Positions 31,251 to 53,607 of a stretch of DNA of 64,000 nt are shown in pieces (positions within the stretch are counted from its first letter, which is position 1; each line of letters starts with the position of its first letter). The stretch lies in contig CANNDL010000001.1 of the NCBI GenBank assembly GCA_947503435.1, positions 83,469 to 147,468 of the forward strand, written 5' to 3'. This stretch comes from an uncultured Kangiella sp. (GTDB lineage Bacteria > Pseudomonadota > Gammaproteobacteria > Enterobacterales > Kangiellaceae). Made by a program: the position numbers and the translations under genes. Under the pieces are notes generated by a model that was given only the letters and a program-made list of their open reading frames with translations, was not told the DNA's origin and searched no databases.

Positions 31251-33860
31251 TTATACTTTCTTCAACTCTAAGGCTGCTTTAACCAAGTCTTTAACGTACT
31301 GGTTATGAGCTTTAGTCGCTTCTGATTGCCAGAAAGCTGTATCAGCATCGGCATCAATGTTCTTCAGCTGTTGACGAGCTAATGCAACACTCTGATTGCT
31401 ATAGCCAGCTTTGCCATTTGACTGAACGATACGTGCTAAACCTTTGATGTACTCAATCTGTAAATTTTGACGCATAGAGTTCACATCGCCAGAATCACCT
31501 TTAAAGATAGCGTTAGTTAAATCACTCATCACTTCTGATAATTCGTATTCATTGCCATACATTGCTGAGTCAATGATACGTTTTTGAACTACAGGGTGAA
31601 GTAATTGAACCAGCACACCACGCTGAGTGTTTAAAGCCCAGTCATGAACTTTTGGATCTTCAGTAAAGCTGAAGTGATTGAAGCCACGACGTTGCAATTG
31701 TAGCTTGCTTAAAATGTCTTTATTAAAATCAAAAGCATCTTCTGCAAAGATATATTTAGCTAACGCATTCATGGCTTCTTTCTGCTTGGTTTTCTCAACT
31801 GGCTGGAATGGCTCAGTTGCGCCAGGTTGTCCAGCAAATCCACGATCTAAATAAACACCACCAATGTAGCGTGAGATAGTACGAGCGTGGCCACCGTATT
31901 GGCGATATAGAGCACCGAAACCATTCACAAGGCCTTGGTAAGAATCGCCTTCTTTAACCAGACGGCCGACTAATTGATCTTCAACGTTACGGATATGATC
32001 CATTTGACCAACTGCGAAACCAACTGCGTCCGAAGTCATGTCACCAACGTTAATGCGTGGGTCAATGGCTTTACCAGGAGAGCGCATATCATCCGCATCG
32101 TTACCAAACGCTAATTCAGGTTCAGTAGAGCGTGCTAATAAAGCAGTCATTCTGTCTTTTTCAGCGTCGGCATTTCCTAGAGAAGGTTTATAACCAAACT
32201 CAATTGCCCATAAATCGTATGGACCGGGAGTGGTGGTATAGAAATTACCTTGCTTTCCATCAGTAGCAAAGTTAATTGCCGGATAGTCCATCACTGATCC
32301 TGTCAAACCGACTGAAGCAGTTTTATTTTTATCACTGACCGAATCTAAGTCATGCAATTGGCTTGATTTCATGTTGTGGTTCAGACCAAGGGTGTGACCA
32401 ACTTCGTGTAATACTAAGAAGTGGATGAAGTCGTATAAGAAGTCTGAAACTTCTTCAGGGCTATCGACCATCGCTTCCATCATCATGCGGCCATCCATCG
32501 CGTCTTGGTACATAGCCTTATGGATGTTGGTGTCATACTCAAGTGATTCTTCCATCGCTTGTTCCATGCTGATAGCTTCTGTTGCCATCAACTCTTCAGC
32601 AAAAGCGATACGATTAAATACTGAGTATTCCAACATGATATCAGCGCCAAGCAACTGACCAGTGCGCGGGTTAGCAAAACTTGGGCCATAACCACCGAAT
32701 GGAGGGCGTGGAGATGAAGTCCAACGTAAAACGTTATAACGAATATCGCCCGCATCCCATTCAGCATCATCAGGCTGAACTTTTACTTGGATGGCATTTT
32801 TAAAGCCGGCTTTTTCAAAAGCTTTATTCCACTCAAGAGTCGCGTGTTTTACCGTTTCGCGAATATGCTCAGGAGTCGTATTTTCAATCCACCATACGAT
32901 TGGTTCAACCGGCTCTGAAAGCTCAGCTGTTGGGTCTTTTTTCTCTAAGTGCCAGCGACGAATCACATCACGATAAGGCGTGTGATCAGCCACCGCAGTC
33001 ATATCGTGCACTTGATTCATAAAGTAGCCTACGCGCGGATCGTCATAACGAGGCATGTAATTATTTTCTGGGACTTCAATCATTGAGTGACGAACACTGA
33101 CTTCGATTGAACGAGGATCGGTTACCGCGAATAATCCTGGGGTTACCGTTCTTGCTTGAGGAACGATTGGGGCAGGGTTGTCGTAAACATACTCTACTTG
33201 GAAGTCTGTGTTTTCTGGGTAATTATCGATTTCAACGTATTTAGTTTTGCTTTTGCTTAATTTGCCTAAACCTAAACGCGTACCCGGCTTAGTGCCTGGT
33301 CGTGGCGATGGTTTAATTTGCAGTAAAGACTCCGATAAGAACAGTTTATCGGCATCAATTAATATATCACCAGTATCTTTATCTTCGGCAATGATCGGTA
33401 AACTACTAATTACCGGACTATTGATGTTGGCATCTTTAGCTTTAGAAACGGCATTTTCTGGATCAAAGTAAAAACTGGTATTTTCAGCTTTGAATTCGAT
33501 GTTTTTGTAATGACGGTCAATGGAGTAAATTCGTGCGCCGGCATAAGCACCACGGAATGCAGCTACACCTACTAAGCCATCACTCACTTGCGCGAAGTGT
33601 AAAAACTCTTTACCAAGTTGGTCTTTTTTAATGACCATTTTTAATTTGCCAGTTTTAGGGTCTTGGTATAAATCGAATAAACCTTCGATTTTGGTCATGT
33701 CCTTAACAGTTTCTTGGATAGTTTTAGCTGCTTTTTGCTCTTTTTTAGCCTTGGCAGGAGCAGCTGCTTCAGCCACAGGGGCGGTAAACGCTACTGTTGA
33801 GCCTAATAAAGCAATTGCAAGCGCTTGGCTTACTTTATTGATTTTCATGTGATTCCCCAC
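31251..33860 (-). CDS. Secreted zinc-dependent metalloprotease (metzincin; DUF5117/DUF4953-type)
   Basis: Signal peptide, HEVGHTLGLNHN (HExxHxxGxxH), Met-turn GSVMDYP, DPRVGYF; the start may be the ATG at 33848. Confidence 0.9.
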   Translation of the reverse strand: MGNHMKINKVSQALAIALLGSTVAFTAPVAEAAAPAKAKKEQKAAKTIQETVKDMTKIEGLFDLYQDPKTGKLKMVIKKDQLGKEFLHFAQVSDGLVGVAAFRGAYAGARIYSIDRHYKNIEFKAENTSFYFDPENAVSKAKDANINSPVISSLPIIAEDKDTGDILIDADKLFLSESLLQIKPSPRPGTKPGTRLGLGKLSKSKTKYVEIDNYPENTDFQVEYVYDNPAPIVPQARTVTPGLFAVTDPRSIEVSVRHSMIEVPENNYMPRYDDPRVGYFMNQVHDMTAVADHTPYRDVIRRWHLEKKDPTAELSEPVEPIVWWIENTTPEHIRETVKHATLEWNKAFEKAGFKNAIQVKVQPDDAEWDAGDIRYNVLRWTSSPRPPFGGYGPSFANPRTGQLLGADIMLEYSVFNRIAFAEELMATEAISMEQAMEESLEYDTNIHKAMYQDAMDGRMMMEAMVDSPEEVSDFLYDFIHFLVLHEVGHTLGLNHNMKSSQLHDLDSVSDKNKTASVGLTGSVMDYPAINFATDGKQGNFYTTTPGPYDLWAIEFGYKPSLGNADAEKDRMTALLARSTEPELAFGNDADDMRSPGKAIDPRINVGDMTSDAVGFAVGQMDHIRNVEDQLVGRLVKEGDSYQGLVNGFGALYRQYGGHARTISRYIGGVYLDRGFAGQPGATEPFQPVEKTKQKEAMNALAKYIFAEDAFDFNKDILSKLQLQRRGFNHFSFTEDPKVHDWALNTQRGVLVQLLHPVVQKRIIDSAMYGNEYELSEVMSDLTNAIFKGDSGDVNSMRQNLQIEYIKGLARIVQSNGKAGYSNQSVALARQQLKNIDADADTAFWQSEATKAHNQYVKDLVKAALELKKV

Positions 33861-33986
33861 GGGTAATAGATATTCTAAAAAATTCCAACACTCTTTTTAC
33901 CAACATATCAGGTAAGGCTCAATCGGAAAATGTAACCAGATATAAACAATTCTCTATATCTTGATGTTCATATAGAAATCACCGAA

Positions 33987-34020
33987 CTGACATCTTACTG
34001 TCATTAACAATATCTATGAT
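33987..34020 (+). promoter_or_regulatory. Pho box plus -10 element (PhoB-type promoter)
   Basis: CTGACAT-CTTA-CTGTCAT, 10-nt spacer, TATGAT; same geometry as the pst-locus promoters in this window. Confidence 0.75.
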
Positions 34021-34055
34021 GGCGTCATCTTGAGTACTTATTGTGGAGAAGAATT

Positions 34056-34136
34056 ATGGATGAGTATGCAGAGCAACTAACAATGCTAGTGATTGCATCG
34101 ATTATATTCGCTTCATTAGTAATACTATTTGCTTAG
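34056..34136 (+). CDS. Putative 26-aa single-TM microprotein (MDEYAEQLTMLVIASIIFASLVILFA)
   Basis: RBS GGAG 7 nt upstream of the ATG, Pho-box promoter upstream, hairpin downstream; too short for the ORF track. Confidence 0.6.
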   Translation: MDEYAEQLTMLVIASIIFASLVILFA

Positions 34137-34150
34137 CGGTAAGTATGGAC

Positions 34151-34181
34151 AGCCCTGACAACTATCTTTCAGGGCTTATTT
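34151..34181 (+). terminator. Hairpin between the microprotein gene and the uvrA 3' end
   Basis: AGCCCTGA-10 nt-TCAGGGCT followed by TATTT on the + strand. Confidence 0.6.
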
Positions 34182-34190
34182 AATGGCTAG

Positions 34191-37016
34191 TCAAGATAAC
34201 ATCGGTTTTAAGTATTTACCGGTAAATGATCCTTTGGTTTTAGCCACTTTTTCTGGCGTGCCTGTTGCTATGATTTGTCCACCCTTATTGCCGCCCTCGG
34301 GCCCTAGATCTACAATCCAGTCGGCAGTCTTAATCACATCCAAGTTATGCTCAATGACGATCAATGTATTGCCGTGATCGCGTAGGCGGTGTAACACTTT
34401 CAATAATTGGTTAACATCGTGGAAGTGTAAGCCAGTAGTGGGCTCATCAAGAATGTATAGAGTTTTTCCTGTATCGCGCTTTGATAATTCGCGCGACAGC
34501 TTAACCCTTTGTGCTTCACCGCCTGAAATAGTAGTCGCGGATTGACCTAAGGTGATATAGGACAAGCCAACATCAATTAAAGTCTGTAATTTGCGGGCTA
34601 TGACTGGAATGGCATCGAAATATTCACGTGCATCTTCTACTGTCATCTGCAGCACTTCATTAATGTTTTTGCCTTTGTACAGAATTTCTAGGGTTTCGCG
34701 ATTATAGCGTTTGCCTTTACACACATCACAGGCCACATACACATCTGGTAAGAAGTGCATTTCGACTTTAATTACGCCATCGCCTTGGCACGCTTCACAG
34801 CGTCCGCCTTTAACGTTGAAACTAAAGCGACCAGGTTTATAGCCGCGAGCACGCGACTCTTGTGTACCAGCAAACAATTCACGAATTGGTGTGAAAATGC
34901 CGGTATAAGTAGCAGGGTTAGAGCGCGGGGTTCGACCGATTGGGCTTTGATCAATATCTACAACTTTATCGATATTTTCTAAGCCAGAAATCGACTCGTA
35001 TTTTTTTGCTTGCAGACTTGAGCGGTTGATTTCTCTTGCCACAATTGGGTAAAGGGTATCGTTAATTAAGGTCGATTTACCAGAGCCAGAAACGCCAGTA
35101 ACACAGGTCATCAATCCCACAGGAATTTCTAAATCAACACTATTTAGGTTGTTGCCTTGAGCGCCTTTAACTTGAATAGTCTTATCTTTATTGTATGGGG
35201 TGCGCTCTTTCGGCACTGAAATTTCTTTTGCACCAGTTAAGTACTGTGCAGTTAAGGAATTTTTGTTTTTCTTAACTTGTGCCAATGAACCTTTGCCAAC
35301 AATCTCACCACCATGGACGCCTGCACCAGGGCCAATATCTACGATATAGTCGGCCGCGCGTATAGCATCTTCATCGTGTTCAACCACTATGACCGTATTA
35401 CCTAAATCGCGTAAGTGAGTCAGAGTCGTTAATAACCGGTCATTATCGCGCTGATGTAAACCAATTGATGGCTCGTCTAATATATACATTACGCCTACTA
35501 AGCCTGCGCCAATTTGGCTAGCTAATCGAATACGCTGCGCTTCGCCTCCCGAAAGTGTGTCGGCGCTCCGCTCCATGGTTAAATAATCTAAACCCACATT
35601 AACTAAGAAGCTCAAGCGGTCACCAATTTCTTTTAAAACTTTAGATGCAATTTCACCGCGTTTACCAGGTAATGATAATTTGGCAAAATATTCGAAAGCT
35701 TCTTCGATCGACCAGCGGGTCACTTGGTGAATGGCGGTATCTTCAATTAATACATTTCGTGAATCTTCATTCAATCGGGTGCCATCGCAATCGTTACAAG
35801 ACTGAGTGGTCATGTATTTAAGCAAGTCATCCCGTACAGCGCCTGACTCAGTTTCGCGGAAACGGCGCTGCATATTGGGAATAATGCCTTCAAAAGTGTG
35901 AGTGCGACGGTAAACGGCACCTTTATCATTGTTATATTCAAATTCTATTTCAGTACGGCCACTTCCAAACAGTATGACTTTTTGAATTTTCTTAGGAAGC
36001 GATGACCATGGGGCTTCAATATCAAAATCATAATGCTTAGCAAGTGATTTCAACATATGGAAATAATAAACGTTACGTCTATCCCAACCGCGAATTGCCC
36101 CACCAGCCAGTGAAACCTCGTCATTGGTAATGATTTTCTCAGCATCGAAAAATTGATCAACACCTAATCCGTCACAAGTTTGACAGGCGCCAGCAGGATT
36201 ATTAAAAGAAAAAACTCTTGGTTCCAATTCCGGGATTGAGTGACCACATGTGGGGCAGGCATATTTTGCTGAGAAGACCATTTCTTCAAAACTCGGATCT
36301 TCATCCATATGTGCTACGCGAGCTATACCTTCTGCTAATTCCAGTGCGGTTTCAAAGGATTCTGCTAATCGTTGCTGTAAGCCTTCTTTGACTTTGAAGC
36401 GGTCGACAATGACTTCAATAGTATGCTTTTTATAGAGGTCTAACTCTGGTGCCTCAGCCAAGTCATAGACAATGCCATCTATACGGGCTCGAACAAAGCC
36501 TTTAGCCTGCAACTCTTGAATCAGCTGAACATGCTCACCTTTTCGATTCTGTACCACTGGCGATAACAGCATTAACTTGCTGCCTTCTGGCTGGTCTAGT
36601 ACTAAATCGACCATTTGCGAAACAGTTTGCGCTTCTAAGGGTAAGTGATGAGTAGGACAGTGGGGCGTTCCAACACGGGCAAACAATAGGCGTAAATAGT
36701 CATAAATTTCAGTAATAGTACCTACTGTAGATCGTGGATTATGAGAAGTAGATTTTTGTTCAATCGAAATCGCTGGTGATAGTCCTTCGATATGATCCAC
36801 ATCGGGCTTTTCCATCAAAGATAAAAATTGACGCGCATACGCCGACAAGGACTCAACATAGCGACGTTGACCTTCGGCATACAAGGTATCAAAAGCAAGT
36901 GAGGACTTACCTGAGCCAGAAAGACCAGTAATGACGATTAACTTATCACGAGGAAGTGTTAAGTCGACATTCTTTAAGTTATGAGTTTTGGCGCCGCGTA
37001 TTTCGATGGTATCCAT
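34191..37016 (-). CDS. uvrA: Excinuclease ABC subunit A
   Basis: [44 protein letters not shown]; start taken as the ATG at 37016. Confidence 0.98.
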
Positions 37017-37349
37017 AGAGGTTTCGCTAAATATTAGAGTAGTGACAATAGTCAAAATTGGCTTTTATAAAAAGGCCAAAACGAACCCGATACTATAACG
37101 CTTTTTGCCAAAATACGAAATGCGTATTCGGCTTTAATTATAGAGATGACTGACAAAGTGGATAGAAATTAACCCGTTAAATTATAGATTAATGCTAAAG
37201 TCAGCAAGTCGTGTAAAGCTTATGCTTAATGCTCATAATCAAAACTACCTTTCGCTGCAAAAAGCGGATAAGATAGTGCGATTGAATTTTTCACATTAAG
37301 CCCAATCATAATTATAAGTGGTTGAAATAAATAATAATTTGGAGGCAGC

Positions 37350-49520: not shown

Positions 49521-49554
49521 ATTGTAAGGCCTAAATATGACATTTCAATGACAG
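49521..49554 (-). promoter_or_regulatory. Pho-box promoter of the porin gene
   Basis: Minus strand: CTGTCAT-TGAA-ATGTCAT, 10 nt, TACAAT. Confidence 0.88.
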
Positions 49555-49664
49555 AATGACGAAAGAAGCATGAATTAGAGTTTTTTTAGAGGAATTTTCA
49601 CAAAAATATAACTGTTCAATAAATAATCATTGTCTGGCATAAAAGAAATAGAAGTATGACCGTG

Positions 49665-49738: not shown

Positions 49739-51979
49739 ATGGAAACATCAATTAAAGATAAGACTCGTAAGCTACTTGATGAGCAGACGAATAGCGGAAA
49801 GCATAAGCGTCGCAAAATCAAAGACTTACTTGCAAAATATGGTATCGCTACCGGTGGCTTATCGGTCATAGCAGCGGTGGTTCTGATCTGTTTTTACCTA
49901 TTATGGGTAGTCTTGCCGATCTTTAAGCCTGCTCAAGTTGAGCTGAACCAAGAATTTCAGTGGAGCCAGTCAGAGGTTAAATATTTAGGCGTTGAAGAGT
50001 ATGGCGAAATTGCTTTTAGCTTAAATAAAGCTGGTCAAATGCAATTTATCGATTTGCAAACGCAAAAAGTGATTTCCGAAGAAACGCTAGAATCAGATAG
50101 TGCAATGACTGCTTATAGTGCTATGGACCTTAAAGGTTTATTAGCTGTGGGTTTTGCAGACGGCTCTTTTAAGTTAGTTTCTCAGAAATACCAAATTACC
50201 TACCCAAATGATAAGCGCAAGATTAATGCCAGCTTAGAGTTTCCATTTGGTGAAGATGCTTTTGAATTAGCCGATAGCGCCATTAAGCATATTAATGGTA
50301 AACGTTGGGAAGATGGTTTATTAATTACCGCCATTACTGAAGACAATGAATTGGTATCTAAACTTTACACCGTCGAAGAGTCTATGTTTGATGACGGCTT
50401 CAGCTTAGAAGAGGACAATGATGATTCTTTCAGTCCAAACTTTGAAGTTAAATACCTACTAGCAACGGAAGGCCCTGACTGGTTGTATCTTGTCGGCGAA
50501 AATGGCCAAGCTGGTGTTTATCGCTGGCGCAACGGCTGGAAGCAAACTGAACAAACGCAATTGTTGGAAGATGACGCAACGGTTACCGAAGCAGTATTCT
50601 TGTTAGGTCAGACGTCACTCTTGATTGGTGATAGTACTGGCTCTATCCATCAATGGTTCCCAGTTCGTGAACAAAACAACGATTTTATTCTAACTAAAAT
50701 TCGTGATTTTAAATTAGCTGATAATCCTATCGAAAAAATTATCACTGAAGCACGTCGTAAAGGTTTTATTGCTGCTGATGCAAAAGGACAAATAGGGATC
50801 TTCTATACTACTTCTGAGCGCCACTTAAAGACAGTGAACTTTGCTCAATCAGTTGCGGCTATAGCAATTAACTCACGCAGTAATAAGCTGTTAGCGGTTG
50901 GCGCAAACGGCACTACTGATTTGTTCGATGTTGAAAATGAACATCCAGAAATTTCTTGGTCAGCACTTTGGAATCATGTTTGGTACGAAAGCTATGAAGA
51001 GCCATCATTTACTTGGCAGTCATCAGCTTCTACTAACGATTTCGAATCTAAGTTTTCATTAATGCCATTAAGTTTTGGTACTTTAAAAGCAGCTTTTTAT
51101 GCCATGCTTTTTGCGGTGCCATTAGCAATCTTTGGTGCAATTTTTACTGCTTATTTCATGTCGCCAAAAATGCGCGGTATGGTTAAACCCACCGTTGAAA
51201 TCATGGAAGCCTTACCTACAGTTATTTTAGGTTTCTTAGCAGGTTTATGGTTAGCGCCAATGGTAGAAGAGAATTTAATGGGCATATTACTCATTCTGAT
51301 CTTACTGCCCATTCTTACAGTGGCCTTTGGTTATGCATGGCACAATGCACCGCAATCTTTCAAAAACCGTATACCAGATGGCTGGCAAGCAGCTTTATTA
51401 ATCCCAGTCATTATTGTCGGCACCATGTTTGCCTTCTGGTTAGGTGAGCCTTTAGAAGCTGTTATGTTTGATGGCAATATGCCTGCGTGGCTAAACTCTA
51501 TCGGCATTAACTATGATCAGCGTAATTCATTAGTTGTTGGTATCGCCATGGGTTTTGCGGTGATTCCAACTATCTTTTCGATTACTGAAGATGCCGTATT
51601 TAGTGTACCTAAGCACTTAACTAACGGTTCTTTAGCACTAGGCGCAAGCCCATGGCAAACCATGATGCGCGTGGTGCTTCCAACTGCTAGCCCAGGTATT
51701 TTCTCAGCCTTGATGATTGGTTTTGGTCGTGCTGTTGGTGAAACCATGATTGTATTGATGGCGACAGGTAATACACCAATTATGGATATGAATATCTTCG
51801 AAGGTATGCGTACCTTGTCAGCAAATATTGCAGTTGAAATGCCTGAATCAGAACTTGGCTCTTCGCATTATCGCGTCTTGTTCTTAGCGGCATTCGTATT
51901 GTTCTTATTCACCTTTATGTTTAACACTATCGCAGAAGTGGTTCGTCAGCGTTTGCGTACTAAGTACGGCTCGCTTTAG
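49739..51979 (+). CDS. pstC: Phosphate ABC transporter permease PstC (long form with a periplasmic propeller-like insert)
   Basis: GTLKAAFYAM, EIMEALPTV, EDAVFSVP, GRAVGETMIV, SANIAVEMPE. Confidence 0.92.
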   Translation: METSIKDKTRKLLDEQTNSGKHKRRKIKDLLAKYGIATGGLSVIAAVVLICFYLLWVVLPIFKPAQVELNQEFQWSQSEVKYLGVEEYGEIAFSLNKAGQMQFIDLQTQKVISEETLESDSAMTAYSAMDLKGLLAVGFADGSFKLVSQKYQITYPNDKRKINASLEFPFGEDAFELADSAIKHINGKRWEDGLLITAITEDNELVSKLYTVEESMFDDGFSLEEDNDDSFSPNFEVKYLLATEGPDWLYLVGENGQAGVYRWRNGWKQTEQTQLLEDDATVTEAVFLLGQTSLLIGDSTGSIHQWFPVREQNNDFILTKIRDFKLADNPIEKIITEARRKGFIAADAKGQIGIFYTTSERHLKTVNFAQSVAAIAINSRSNKLLAVGANGTTDLFDVENEHPEISWSALWNHVWYESYEEPSFTWQSSASTNDFESKFSLMPLSFGTLKAAFYAMLFAVPLAIFGAIFTAYFMSPKMRGMVKPTVEIMEALPTVILGFLAGLWLAPMVEENLMGILLILILLPILTVAFGYAWHNAPQSFKNRIPDGWQAALLIPVIIVGTMFAFWLGEPLEAVMFDGNMPAWLNSIGINYDQRNSLVVGIAMGFAVIPTIFSITEDAVFSVPKHLTNGSLALGASPWQTMMRVVLPTASPGIFSALMIGFGRAVGETMIVLMATGNTPIMDMNIFEGMRTLSANIAVEMPESELGSSHYRVLFLAAFVLFLFTFMFNTIAEVVRQRLRTKYGSL

Positions 51980-51993
51980 AGGAGGCTTGAAAG

Positions 51994-53607
51994 ATGAGTT
52001 CAAATAAAAAATTCTTCCAAGGCGGTCAACACTGGGTGTGGTTAAATGCCGGCGCTATTAGTATCTCAATCATTATGGTTGTGGGTTTATTGTTACTGAT
52101 TGCGGTACGTGGTCTGAGTCACTTCTGGCCTGCAGATGTTAATACTTTCTTAGTACAAACGGAGCAGGGCGTTGAGTTGGTGATGGGTGAAATCCATAGT
52201 CATGAAGAAGATATACAAGATGGCCGTGAGCGTGAGCAATATCTGATAAAGACGGGAAACCGTGATCAATATGGTATCGACTTCCGTTGGTTAGATCTTA
52301 AAGATGTATCCGATACCAAGATAGATGAAAATGTGGTTGTTCTTGAGCGCCGTGAATGGGGTAACTTATACGGTTTTATCAAGACGGTTACTATGGATGG
52401 TCAGTCTGTTGAACCAACGGCTGAAAATTTAGAATCTATTATTGAACGCGCCAATGGTTTACATCATGAAATTCGTGGTATTGAAGCTGGCGACATTGGT
52501 AGTATTAACTATGACTTGGAGCAGTTACGTTTAGAGCAGCGTCGTTTAGAGCTGGATAATGAGCTTACTCCAGAAGCTCTTGCCGATTTAGATAAACAAC
52601 GTGAAGAATTAAATCAACAGTTCTTAAGTTATCAATCGGGTTTACAGGAATTATATACTCAGGCGAAAAGAGATTCGGCAGAGTTTGAATTAGTTGGCGG
52701 CCAAACAAGAACGGTCAATGCTGAAATGATGGTGCGTTCATTCCAGCCAAATGCGATGGGCGTTTTTGCAAAAATTGGTCACTACTTCTCAAAACTTGGC
52801 GAGTTTATTTTTGACGAACCACGTGAAGCCAATACCGAAGGCGGTGTCTTTCCAGCAATTTTCGGTACTGTTTTGATGGTCTTGTTAATGTCGGTAGTGG
52901 TAACTCCATTAGGCGTAATCGCAGCAGTTTATATGCGTGAATACGCTAAGCAGGGGCCACTAACTCGCACCATTCGAATCGCGGTCAACAATTTAGCGGG
53001 TGTACCGTCAATCGTATATGGTGTATTCGGTTTAGGCTTCTTTGTTTATTTCTTAGGTGGCTCCATAGATGACTTGTTCTACCCTGAAGTAAAACCAGCT
53101 CCAATGTTTGGCACACCAGGTTTGATTTGGGCATCGTTAACCCTAGCTTTATTAACCTTGCCAGTCGTTATTGTATCTACTGAAGAAGGTTTAGCGCGCA
53201 TCCCAAGCGCTATCCGTGAAGGTAGCCTGGCTTTAGGGGCGACTAAATTTGAAACGCTATGGAAGACGGTATTACCAATGGCATCACCGGCAATGATGAC
53301 TGGATTGATCTTGGCCGTTGCGCGTGCAGCAGGTGAGGTTGCGCCATTAATGTTAGTTGGTGTGGTAAAGCTAGCGCCAACCTTGCCGTTGGATGCGAAT
53401 GCTCCGTTCCTGCACTTAGAGCGCAAATTTATGCACTTAGGTTTTCATATTTATGACGTTGGCTTCCAAAGCCCTAACGTTGAGGCGGCGCGTCCACTGG
53501 TATATGCAACTGCCTTATTGTTAGTATTAATTATTATTTTATTGAATATTGCGGCGATTAAAATCCGTAATAATTTACGCGAAAAGTATAAATCGCTTGA
53601 GCAATAA
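51994..53607 (+). CDS. pstA: Phosphate ABC transporter permease PstA
   Basis: ANTEGGVFPAIFGT, NLAGVPSIVYG, REGSLALGAT, RAAGEVAPL. Confidence 0.94.
   Translation: MSSNKKFFQGGQHWVWLNAGAISISIIMVVGLLLLIAVRGLSHFWPADVNTFLVQTEQGVELVMGEIHSHEEDIQDGREREQYLIKTGNRDQYGIDFRWLDLKDVSDTKIDENVVVLERREWGNLYGFIKTVTMDGQSVEPTAENLESIIERANGLHHEIRGIEAGDIGSINYDLEQLRLEQRRLELDNELTPEALADLDKQREELNQQFLSYQSGLQELYTQAKRDSAEFELVGGQTRTVNAEMMVRSFQPNAMGVFAKIGHYFSKLGEFIFDEPREANTEGGVFPAIFGTVLMVLLMSVVVTPLGVIAAVYMREYAKQGPLTRTIRIAVNNLAGVPSIVYGVFGLGFFVYFLGGSIDDLFYPEVKPAPMFGTPGLIWASLTLALLTLPVVIVSTEEGLARIPSAIREGSLALGATKFETLWKTVLPMASPAMMTGLILAVARAAGEVAPLMLVGVVKLAPTLPLDANAPFLHLERKFMHLGFHIYDVGFQSPNVEAARPLVYATALLLVLIIILLNIAAIKIRNNLREKYKSLEQ

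Follow-up and report, generated by a model that had tools for sequence, protein, structure and literature searches.

In E. coli, small single-helix proteins are induced by two-component systems and bind larger membrane proteins: MgrB binds the sensor kinase PhoQ, and MgtS binds the transporters MgtA and PitA, a link to phosphate (PMC11429745). The phosphate-starvation regulator PhoB has such a gene of its own in yoaI, to which it is bound in chromatin immunoprecipitation sequencing and whose RNA sequencing signal falls from 12,266 to 28 units in a phoB deletion strain (PMC10294691). YoaI binds and activates EnvZ through its cytoplasmic C-terminal tail, in which Ser26-Val27 and Glu31 are invariant and V27 and E31 mediate the binding (PMC11429745). 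The phosphate response is also tuned by the small DUF1127 proteins (the SDPs of A. tumefaciens and YjiS of E. coli), which bind PhoR directly (PMC12501420). Here we describe an unannotated transcription unit at positions 33987-34184 of a 64,000-nt stretch of DNA from an uncultured Kangiella sp. (contig CANNDL010000001.1; hereafter the window), in which a PhoB-type promoter precedes a 26-codon open reading frame (ORF). We consider it likely that the unit is a PhoB-activated, monocistronic mRNA of ~160 nt that encodes a tail-less, acidic-headed, single-helix inner-membrane peptide modulating a larger membrane protein.

The unit is read on the plus strand and opens with the Pho box CTGACAT-CTTA-CTGTCAT (33987-34004), two 7-bp direct repeats with a 4-bp spacer that stand in the place of a -35 element. 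Exactly 10 nt further downstream (TAACAATATC) lies the -10 hexamer TATGAT (34015-34020), followed by the 10-nt block GCGTCATCTT (34022-34031) around a predicted transcription start at ~34027. The Shine-Dalgarno (SD) sequence GGAG (34045-34048) is placed 7 nt upstream of the ATG of an ORF of 26 codons plus TAG (34056-34136, stop codon 34134-34136) that encodes MDEYAEQLTMLVIASIIFASLVILFA. The unit closes with a hairpin whose 8-bp stem is formed by AGCCCTGA and TCAGGGCT around a 10-nt loop (34151-34176) and which runs into the tail TATTTAAT, hairpin and tail together covering 34151-34184. Promoter, ribosome-binding site, ORF and hairpin had all been proposed in an initial, sequence-only reading of the window, and each was present at the coordinates it gave, with a hairpin that is modest and a tail that is only moderately T-rich. 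Apart from the same frame begun at a TTG within the SD sequence, we found no other ORF of at least 20 codons inside the unit on either strand. That TTG start (34041, giving 31 aa) was rejected, as it overlaps the SD sequence and is not conserved.

We searched for further Pho boxes with the pattern CTGWCATN4CTGWCAT, counting matches with up to 2 mismatches. The box of the unit is the only match without a mismatch in the window, where the porin and pstC promoters account for all other matches; it is also the single perfect one among the 34 matches in the whole 2.36-Mb genome, with the pstC and porin boxes next in the ranking. These two promoters act as internal controls and, as had been claimed from the sequence, share the geometry of the unit, with 10 nt between box and -10: CTTTCATATAACTGTCAT, 10 nt and TATAAT at pstC, and three half-sites, 10 nt and TACAAT at the porin gene. 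Pfam and NCBIfam identify the control genes as an O/P-type porin, pstC, pstA, pstB, phoU, phoB, phoR and pstS. The pstCAB genes are 15 kb from the microprotein gene, and 21 kb separate it from the genes for PhoB (TIGR02154, 326.9 bits against a cut-off of 296.2) and PhoR (TIGR02966, 413.8 bits). In a search of 24 Kangiella genomes, the arrangement of box, 10 nt and TAnnnT was found at 30 sites compared to 2 for a reversed control; of the sites examined, the majority precede porin or pstS genes and a few are in front of other ORFs. The promoter of the unit is among the top 1-3 matches in each genome that carries it, and none of the other Kangiella Pho-box promoters examined is followed by a comparable small ORF outside the unit. 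Based on the motif, its spacing and these controls, we infer that the promoter is controlled by PhoB.

The unit is found at the same syntenic site, between a metalloprotease gene and uvrA, in this genome (G000), an uncultured Kangiella (G014), Kangiella sp. HZ709 (G016), the metagenome-assembled genome GCA_947492205 (L086) and a Logan-assembly contig (L087). L086 is nearly identical to G016 within the unit, and the five occurrences represent three lineages: G000; G014, G016 and L086; and L087. At uvrA, the divergence between G000 and G016 amounts to ~0.85 substitutions per site. Between them, the half-sites and the -10 are identical at 18 of 20 positions, compared to 3 of 14 in the spacers (Fisher p = 7.7e-5). 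Both half-sites are kept in G014, G016 and L086 as CTGACAT-N4-TTGTCAT, and L087 keeps the proximal half-site (ATGTCAT), the 10-nt spacing and the -10 (p = 0.002-0.005), with a further good half-site, TTGACAT, 22 bp upstream. All three lineages have 10 nt between the box and the -10, which reads TAAGAT and TATTAT (the latter in L087) outside G000, and 35-36 nt between the -10 and the ATG. The SD sequence is AAGGAG in G016 and AGGAG in L087, in both cases 5 nt from the start codon and within a diverged untranslated region (UTR). By this comparison the promoter elements are selectively conserved.

The same comparison bears on whether the box acts on the ORF at all. It could instead serve the divergent metalloprotease gene, or be an inert site for PhoB or another OmpR-family regulator, so that the small gene would be independent of phosphate. 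The box does lie upstream of the protease gene, 139 nt from its start codon, and its distal half-site has decayed to GCGCCTC in L087, where PhoB control may be weakening. In E. coli, moreover, many PhoB sites are transcriptionally inert and have no regulatory output, most of them being intragenic (PMC10294691). However, the box is oriented to the plus strand and stands at exactly 10 nt from a plus-strand -10 in all three lineages, the same type of box is found at the pst and porin genes, and the conserved block upstream of the protease gene stops short of it. Species that have the protease gene and lack the ORF also lack the box, and it is therefore the ORF, not the protease gene, to which the box belongs. 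We regard a box unconnected to the ORF as highly improbable.

Two further observations concern Pho promoters of this genus. A CGTC-containing motif occurs just 3' of the -10, as GCGTCATCTT in the unit and as …CGTCT(A/T)TTAA in the genus-wide Pho-box porin promoters (loci L031-L057), and may represent an element at the start site or in the initially transcribed region that Kangiella Pho promoters have in common. In addition, the fourth-best Pho box of the genome (contig C3, ~399,770-400,133, minus strand) lies between dapB and carA and reads TTGTCATAAATCTGACAT, 10 nt and AATATT. Behind it come ~330 nt without a convincing ORF that end in a GC-rich hairpin and a T-run (GGGCGCGAATAGCGCCCTTTTTCTTTT), a stretch that might be transcribed under PhoB control as a non-coding RNA or form a long leader. 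An origin of this box as a relic of the pstS promoter present in other species was rejected, as the stretch has no similarity to the pstS leader that follows a similar box there.

The orthologous peptides are MNEYFEDLSWIITCTIIFGTLVVMLS in G014, G016 and L086 and MNEYLEEMSWVDLAWIVTSTIILVSLVVLVA in L087. All three lineages keep the ATG, an SD sequence at 5-7 nt, the reading frame and a stop codon right after a 19-residue hydrophobic segment, and nine residues are invariant (M1, E3, Y4, E6, L8, I16, I17, L21 and V22). In the three pairwise comparisons, differences at codon positions 1/2/3 number 15/5/13, 12/4/10 and 9/2/11, with second positions changing least, and the Nei-Gojobori ratios of nonsynonymous to synonymous change (dN/dS) are 0.27, 0.42 and 0.21. 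The sole indel within the ORF is an in-frame insertion of 15 nt (5 codons) in L087, whereas indels in the UTRs are not multiples of three. We also simulated neutral change by placing 33 random substitutions, the divergence observed to G016, on the G000 ORF: it remained intact in 2.4% of trials, and intact with an equally hydrophobic tail in 0.1% (P = 0.001). Judged by this pattern of change, the ORF is a real protein-coding gene.

With only 26 codons, no database homologue and no entry from any gene caller, the ORF might still be taken for a chance frame in a conserved non-coding spacer that encodes nothing functional. We find this scarcely credible given the probability of 0.001 under neutral change, the codon-position bias in three independent pairs, the in-frame indel and the conserved SD sequence. 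Significant hidden Markov model (HMM) matches in G014 and G016 (E = 7e-18 per genome) point the same way, both genomes being among those whose sequences built the model. The sequence-only reading had proposed an unannotated PhoB-type promoter in front of a small membrane protein gene and had suggested conservation and dN/dS as a check. The promoter footprint and the coding constraint in three lineages support this proposal, with frame, start, stop, SD sequence and hydrophobicity all kept at dN/dS values of 0.21-0.42.

In the encoded peptide, an acidic head of 7 residues precedes a hydrophobic helix of 19 residues that extends up to the C-terminus. The 19-residue run contains no K, R, D, E, H, N, Q or P and has a mean Kyte-Doolittle value of 2.75 in G000 and 2.11 in G016. 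AlphaFold2 models the 31-aa variant with helices at residues 3-7 and 10-30 at a mean predicted local distance difference test score (pLDDT) of 86.5, with block means of 93-95 over most of helix 10-30. We therefore predict a single-pass membrane peptide. No topology follows from the positive-inside rule, since basic residues are absent from the peptide. A stripe along the helix, [S/T]15-x3-[A/G/V]19, is conserved, with small residues in two of the three lineages; this stripe and the invariant E3, Y4 and E6 are candidate contact surfaces.

Peptides of this kind also occur among toxins, and the unit might encode a membrane-perturbing peptide resembling type I toxins, induced by starvation to slow growth or cause dormancy. 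The product is a very small and very hydrophobic stand-alone peptide, its promoter is of a stress-responsive type, and its presence in sister species is patchy, which is typical of dispensable toxin loci. TisB, a toxin of this class, is controlled by LexA and acts after DNA damage. Type I toxin mRNAs typically carry a long leader that sequesters the SD sequence, whereas the 5' UTR here is ~30 nt long and exposes a strong one. Basic residues and pore-lining polar ones are missing from the peptide, each genome carries the unit only once, and we found no antisense promoter-like site in the units of G000, L086 and L087, the consensus scans used being a weak test. We consider a toxin unlikely.

The hairpin at the end of the unit is modest in G000, at -12.5 to -13.7 kcal/mol (z = -1.3), and a simple terminator scan misses it because its loop is 10 nt. 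It is located 14 nt past the stop codon of uvrA on the opposite strand and is therefore probably shared with this gene, as a bidirectional terminator for both converging genes. All three lineages have a hairpin at this place; the G016 terminator, with a 10-bp stem and U6, is stronger than that of G000, and the L087 terminator reaches -27.6 kcal/mol (z = -4.5) with U5.

A transcript that is short, stands alone and is bounded by a promoter and a terminator of its own could also matter as RNA, namely as a PhoB-activated small regulatory RNA (sRNA) of ~160 nt in which the ORF is incidental or to which it adds a second function. G000 and G016 do not differ in the block at the predicted 5' end (GCGTCATCTT; L087 has TCATCT at a shifted distance), and the contig C3 box, with no convincing ORF behind it, suggests that PhoB-driven non-coding RNAs may exist in this genome. 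Beyond the promoter and the first 10 nt, however, nucleotide conservation is low and follows the codon structure (in-frame indel, dN/dS 0.2-0.4), the SD sequence and start codon are kept in all lineages, and the 3' UTR is conserved neither in length nor in sequence. Rfam yielded neither a family in the window nor a match to the transcript, which as a whole folds no better than shuffled sequences (z = -1.4). The suggestion in the sequence-only reading that the RNA could act as an sRNA is weakly disfavored by the codon-following conservation and the folding score, and we think such a role quite improbable.

Among the 24 Kangiella species genomes, 6 have the metalloprotease gene, and the unit always adjoins that gene. 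The six protease-bearing species form a clade in the uvrA tree (Shimodaira-Hasegawa-like approximate likelihood ratio test, SH-aLRT, 99), with unresolved internal branching. In G005, G019 and G020 the unit is absent, and the block upstream of the protease gene runs almost directly into the uvrA terminator. The simplest history is one origin followed by several losses; three of the six closest species have lost the gene or never acquired it, and it is therefore dispensable. On its other side, the unit is directly followed by uvrA in G000 and L087, while inserted DNA separates the two in G014, G016 and L086.

We looked for homologues well beyond these genomes. A tblastn-type search of the genus gave no further homologue, and a search of 401 genomes of the order for the N-terminal codon pattern gave extra matches that are all due to chance. 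The pattern of head plus hydrophobic codons recovered only the two known Kangiella among 185,579 species genomes and, in Joint Genome Institute (JGI) metagenomes, one AT-rich chance match with an early stop. A profile compared with 1.84 billion protein representatives had 0 matches, and exact look-up in a collection of 15 billion proteins did not find the peptide, whose ORF no gene caller had recorded there. The three-sequence HMM matched G000, G014 and G016 with per-genome E values from 1e-15 to 1e-18, and its matches in the rest of the genus were only partial, transmembrane-like noise; all three matched sequences helped to build the model, and its informative part is therefore the absence of other matches. 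In Pfam and NCBIfam the peptide belongs to no family, the only hit being a sub-threshold one to DUF3963 (14.5 bits against a cut-off of 25). Searches of sequencing runs yielded a single seawater DNA metagenome and no RNA run of this organism; the contigs of that metagenome contained conserved uvrA pieces from other organisms and no part of the unit. By these searches, the peptide family is new and very narrowly distributed.

Sequence and comparison support a promoter of this architecture whose elements are selectively conserved, coding constraint on the ORF, and a product that is helical and hydrophobic; together these suggest the following model. Under phosphate limitation, phosphorylated PhoB would bind the two CTG(A/T)CAT repeats at the -35 position and recruit sigma-70 RNA polymerase to TATGAT. 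Transcription would then proceed from ~34027 to the hairpin at 34151-34184, giving an RNA of ~160 nt on which a strong, unstructured SD sequence would drive translation of the 26-residue peptide. The 19 C-terminal residues would insert as one membrane-spanning helix, in a topology that leaves the acidic head (M-D/N-E-Y-x-E) outside the bilayer. In the membrane, the peptide would most likely bind a larger inner-membrane protein, for example a sensor kinase or a transporter, as established two-component-induced small proteins do. The sequence-only reading had put forward PhoR, the Pst complex or another transporter as possible targets.

Several observations weigh against this model. Amino-acid identity between the lineages is only 38-62%, and at the nucleotide level the ORF is 58% identical between G000 and G016 compared to 75% in the adjacent protease promoter block. 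The family is tiny, comprising three lineages of one Kangiella subclade, and three of the six closest species, or half, lack the unit. The sequence-only reading had named an ORF that is not conserved while its flanks are as the outcome that would speak against it; the ORF is in fact kept in frame, length, start, stop, SD sequence and hydrophobic character, although its identity is low and its presence patchy. To these points are added the degenerate distal half-site of L087, the inert PhoB sites of E. coli, the weak terminator of G000 and a peptide with no basic residue.

The unit lies in a 340-nt spacer between two minus-strand genes that lie outside it. The divergent neighbor (31251-33848) encodes a secreted zinc metalloprotease of the met-zincin type (DUF5117 and DUF4953), and the converging neighbor is uvrA (34191-37055). 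Upstream of the protease start, a block of ~75 nt (33877-33950, in minus-strand sense, with …AACCAGATATAAA… at its end) has 75-85% identity in all six protease-bearing species and is conserved far better than the remaining spacer; it probably serves the protease gene as promoter, 5' UTR or regulator site. The uvrA side of the unit is a hot spot for indels and insertions (loci L086 300-1500 and L008/L007 1150-1450). The inserted DNA holds a gene for an uncharacterized 133-aa membrane protein in GCA_947492205, a different gene end in HZ709 and ~870 nt of mostly non-coding DNA in G014. Further along the window, the phosphate-porin promoter (49537-49565, minus strand) has its three half-sites in phase, CTTTCGT-CATT-CTGTCAT-TGAA-ATGTCAT, ahead of the 10-nt spacer and TACAAT, and diverges from the pstC promoter at a distance of 100 nt. 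PstC (746 aa) and PstA (537 aa), encoded at 49739-53607, are much longer than the E. coli proteins, and each has a large N-terminal extension before the permease domain.

Anchoring a search on a strict regulatory motif can thus expose small membrane protein genes that annotation systematically misses. If PhoB control of the unit is true, it would suggest that membrane modulators which evolve fast and are restricted to certain lineages are a common part of phosphate-starvation responses. In practice the finding is of limited use, as the gene occurs in few Kangiella species and is dispensable in sister species, and the concept of a PhoB-induced small transmembrane protein is already established by YoaI. 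A bolder extension, possible in our view but doubtful, is that the Pho regulons of unrelated bacteria have repeatedly and independently recruited lineage-specific single-helix microproteins, YoaI and the Kangiella family among them, as connectors that link phosphate starvation to another membrane sensor or transporter. The invariant acidic M-x-E-Y-x-E head of the Kangiella peptide would then have PhoR, PstCA or some other histidine kinase as the partner that it binds and modulates, in a new mode that is head-mediated, tail-less and without basic anchors.

Compared with the known systems, the peptide is proposed to fall into the mechanistic class of MgrB and MgtS, which are likewise single-helix proteins induced by a two-component system. 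Their regulator is PhoP and not PhoB, however, and they have no sequence relationship to the Kangiella peptide. MgrB has 47 aa and MgtS 31 aa, and basic residues set the topology of both. The DUF1127 proteins are more distant: they are soluble and arginine-rich, have no transmembrane helix and are not reported to be driven by a Pho box, and the Kangiella peptide has neither a match to DUF1127 in the Pfam scan nor sequence similarity to these proteins. Subunits of the KdpF type have ~26-30 aa and, like the Kangiella peptide, consist almost entirely of one hydrophobic helix. KdpF also has, as far as is known, no basic residues and is co-induced with a starvation-responsive uptake system, but it is encoded inside the operon of its partner, whereas the Kangiella gene is monocistronic and 15 kb from pstCAB. 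The type I toxins TisB, Ibs and ShoB resemble the Kangiella peptide in size, hydrophobicity, stand-alone locus, stress promoter and patchy distribution; they differ in that the Kangiella unit has no long structured leader and, in consensus scans, no antisense RNA signal, and that its peptide has no charged or pore-lining residues in the manner of these toxins.

The closest counterpart is YoaI (NF041475, 34 aa). In the K-12 sequence, the box CTGTCAT-CAAA-CTGCCAT of yoaI is followed after 10 nt by TAACAA and then by a short leader and the gene for a single-helix protein of 34 residues. yoaI so shares with the Kangiella unit a stand-alone gene, a short leader and a Pho box that occupies the -35 position, with 10 nt to the -10. 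The two products share a single transmembrane helix and a short acidic N-terminal head, which in YoaI starts with MN(D/E). The YoaI profile scores 79.8 bits with E. coli YoaI and does not match either Kangiella peptide at E up to 10. Against segment-preserving shuffles, ungapped similarity has p = 0.023 for G016 and 0.079 for G000, and local similarity p = 0.2-0.3. Membership in the YoaI family was rejected, since the ungapped alignment (MN., IIT, ..LS) is not convincingly above the shuffles and the tail is absent, and YoaI was kept as an analogy. The Kangiella peptides end right after the helix, with A or S as residue 26 or A as residue 31, and so have no YoaI-type tail, V27 or E31; unlike in YoaI, their conserved polar residues are N-terminal. 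As far as these comparisons reach, the Kangiella peptide resembles YoaI in design and not in sequence, and, if its control by PhoB is true, it would be the second single-helix peptide of a Pho regulon after YoaI, unrelated to it in sequence.

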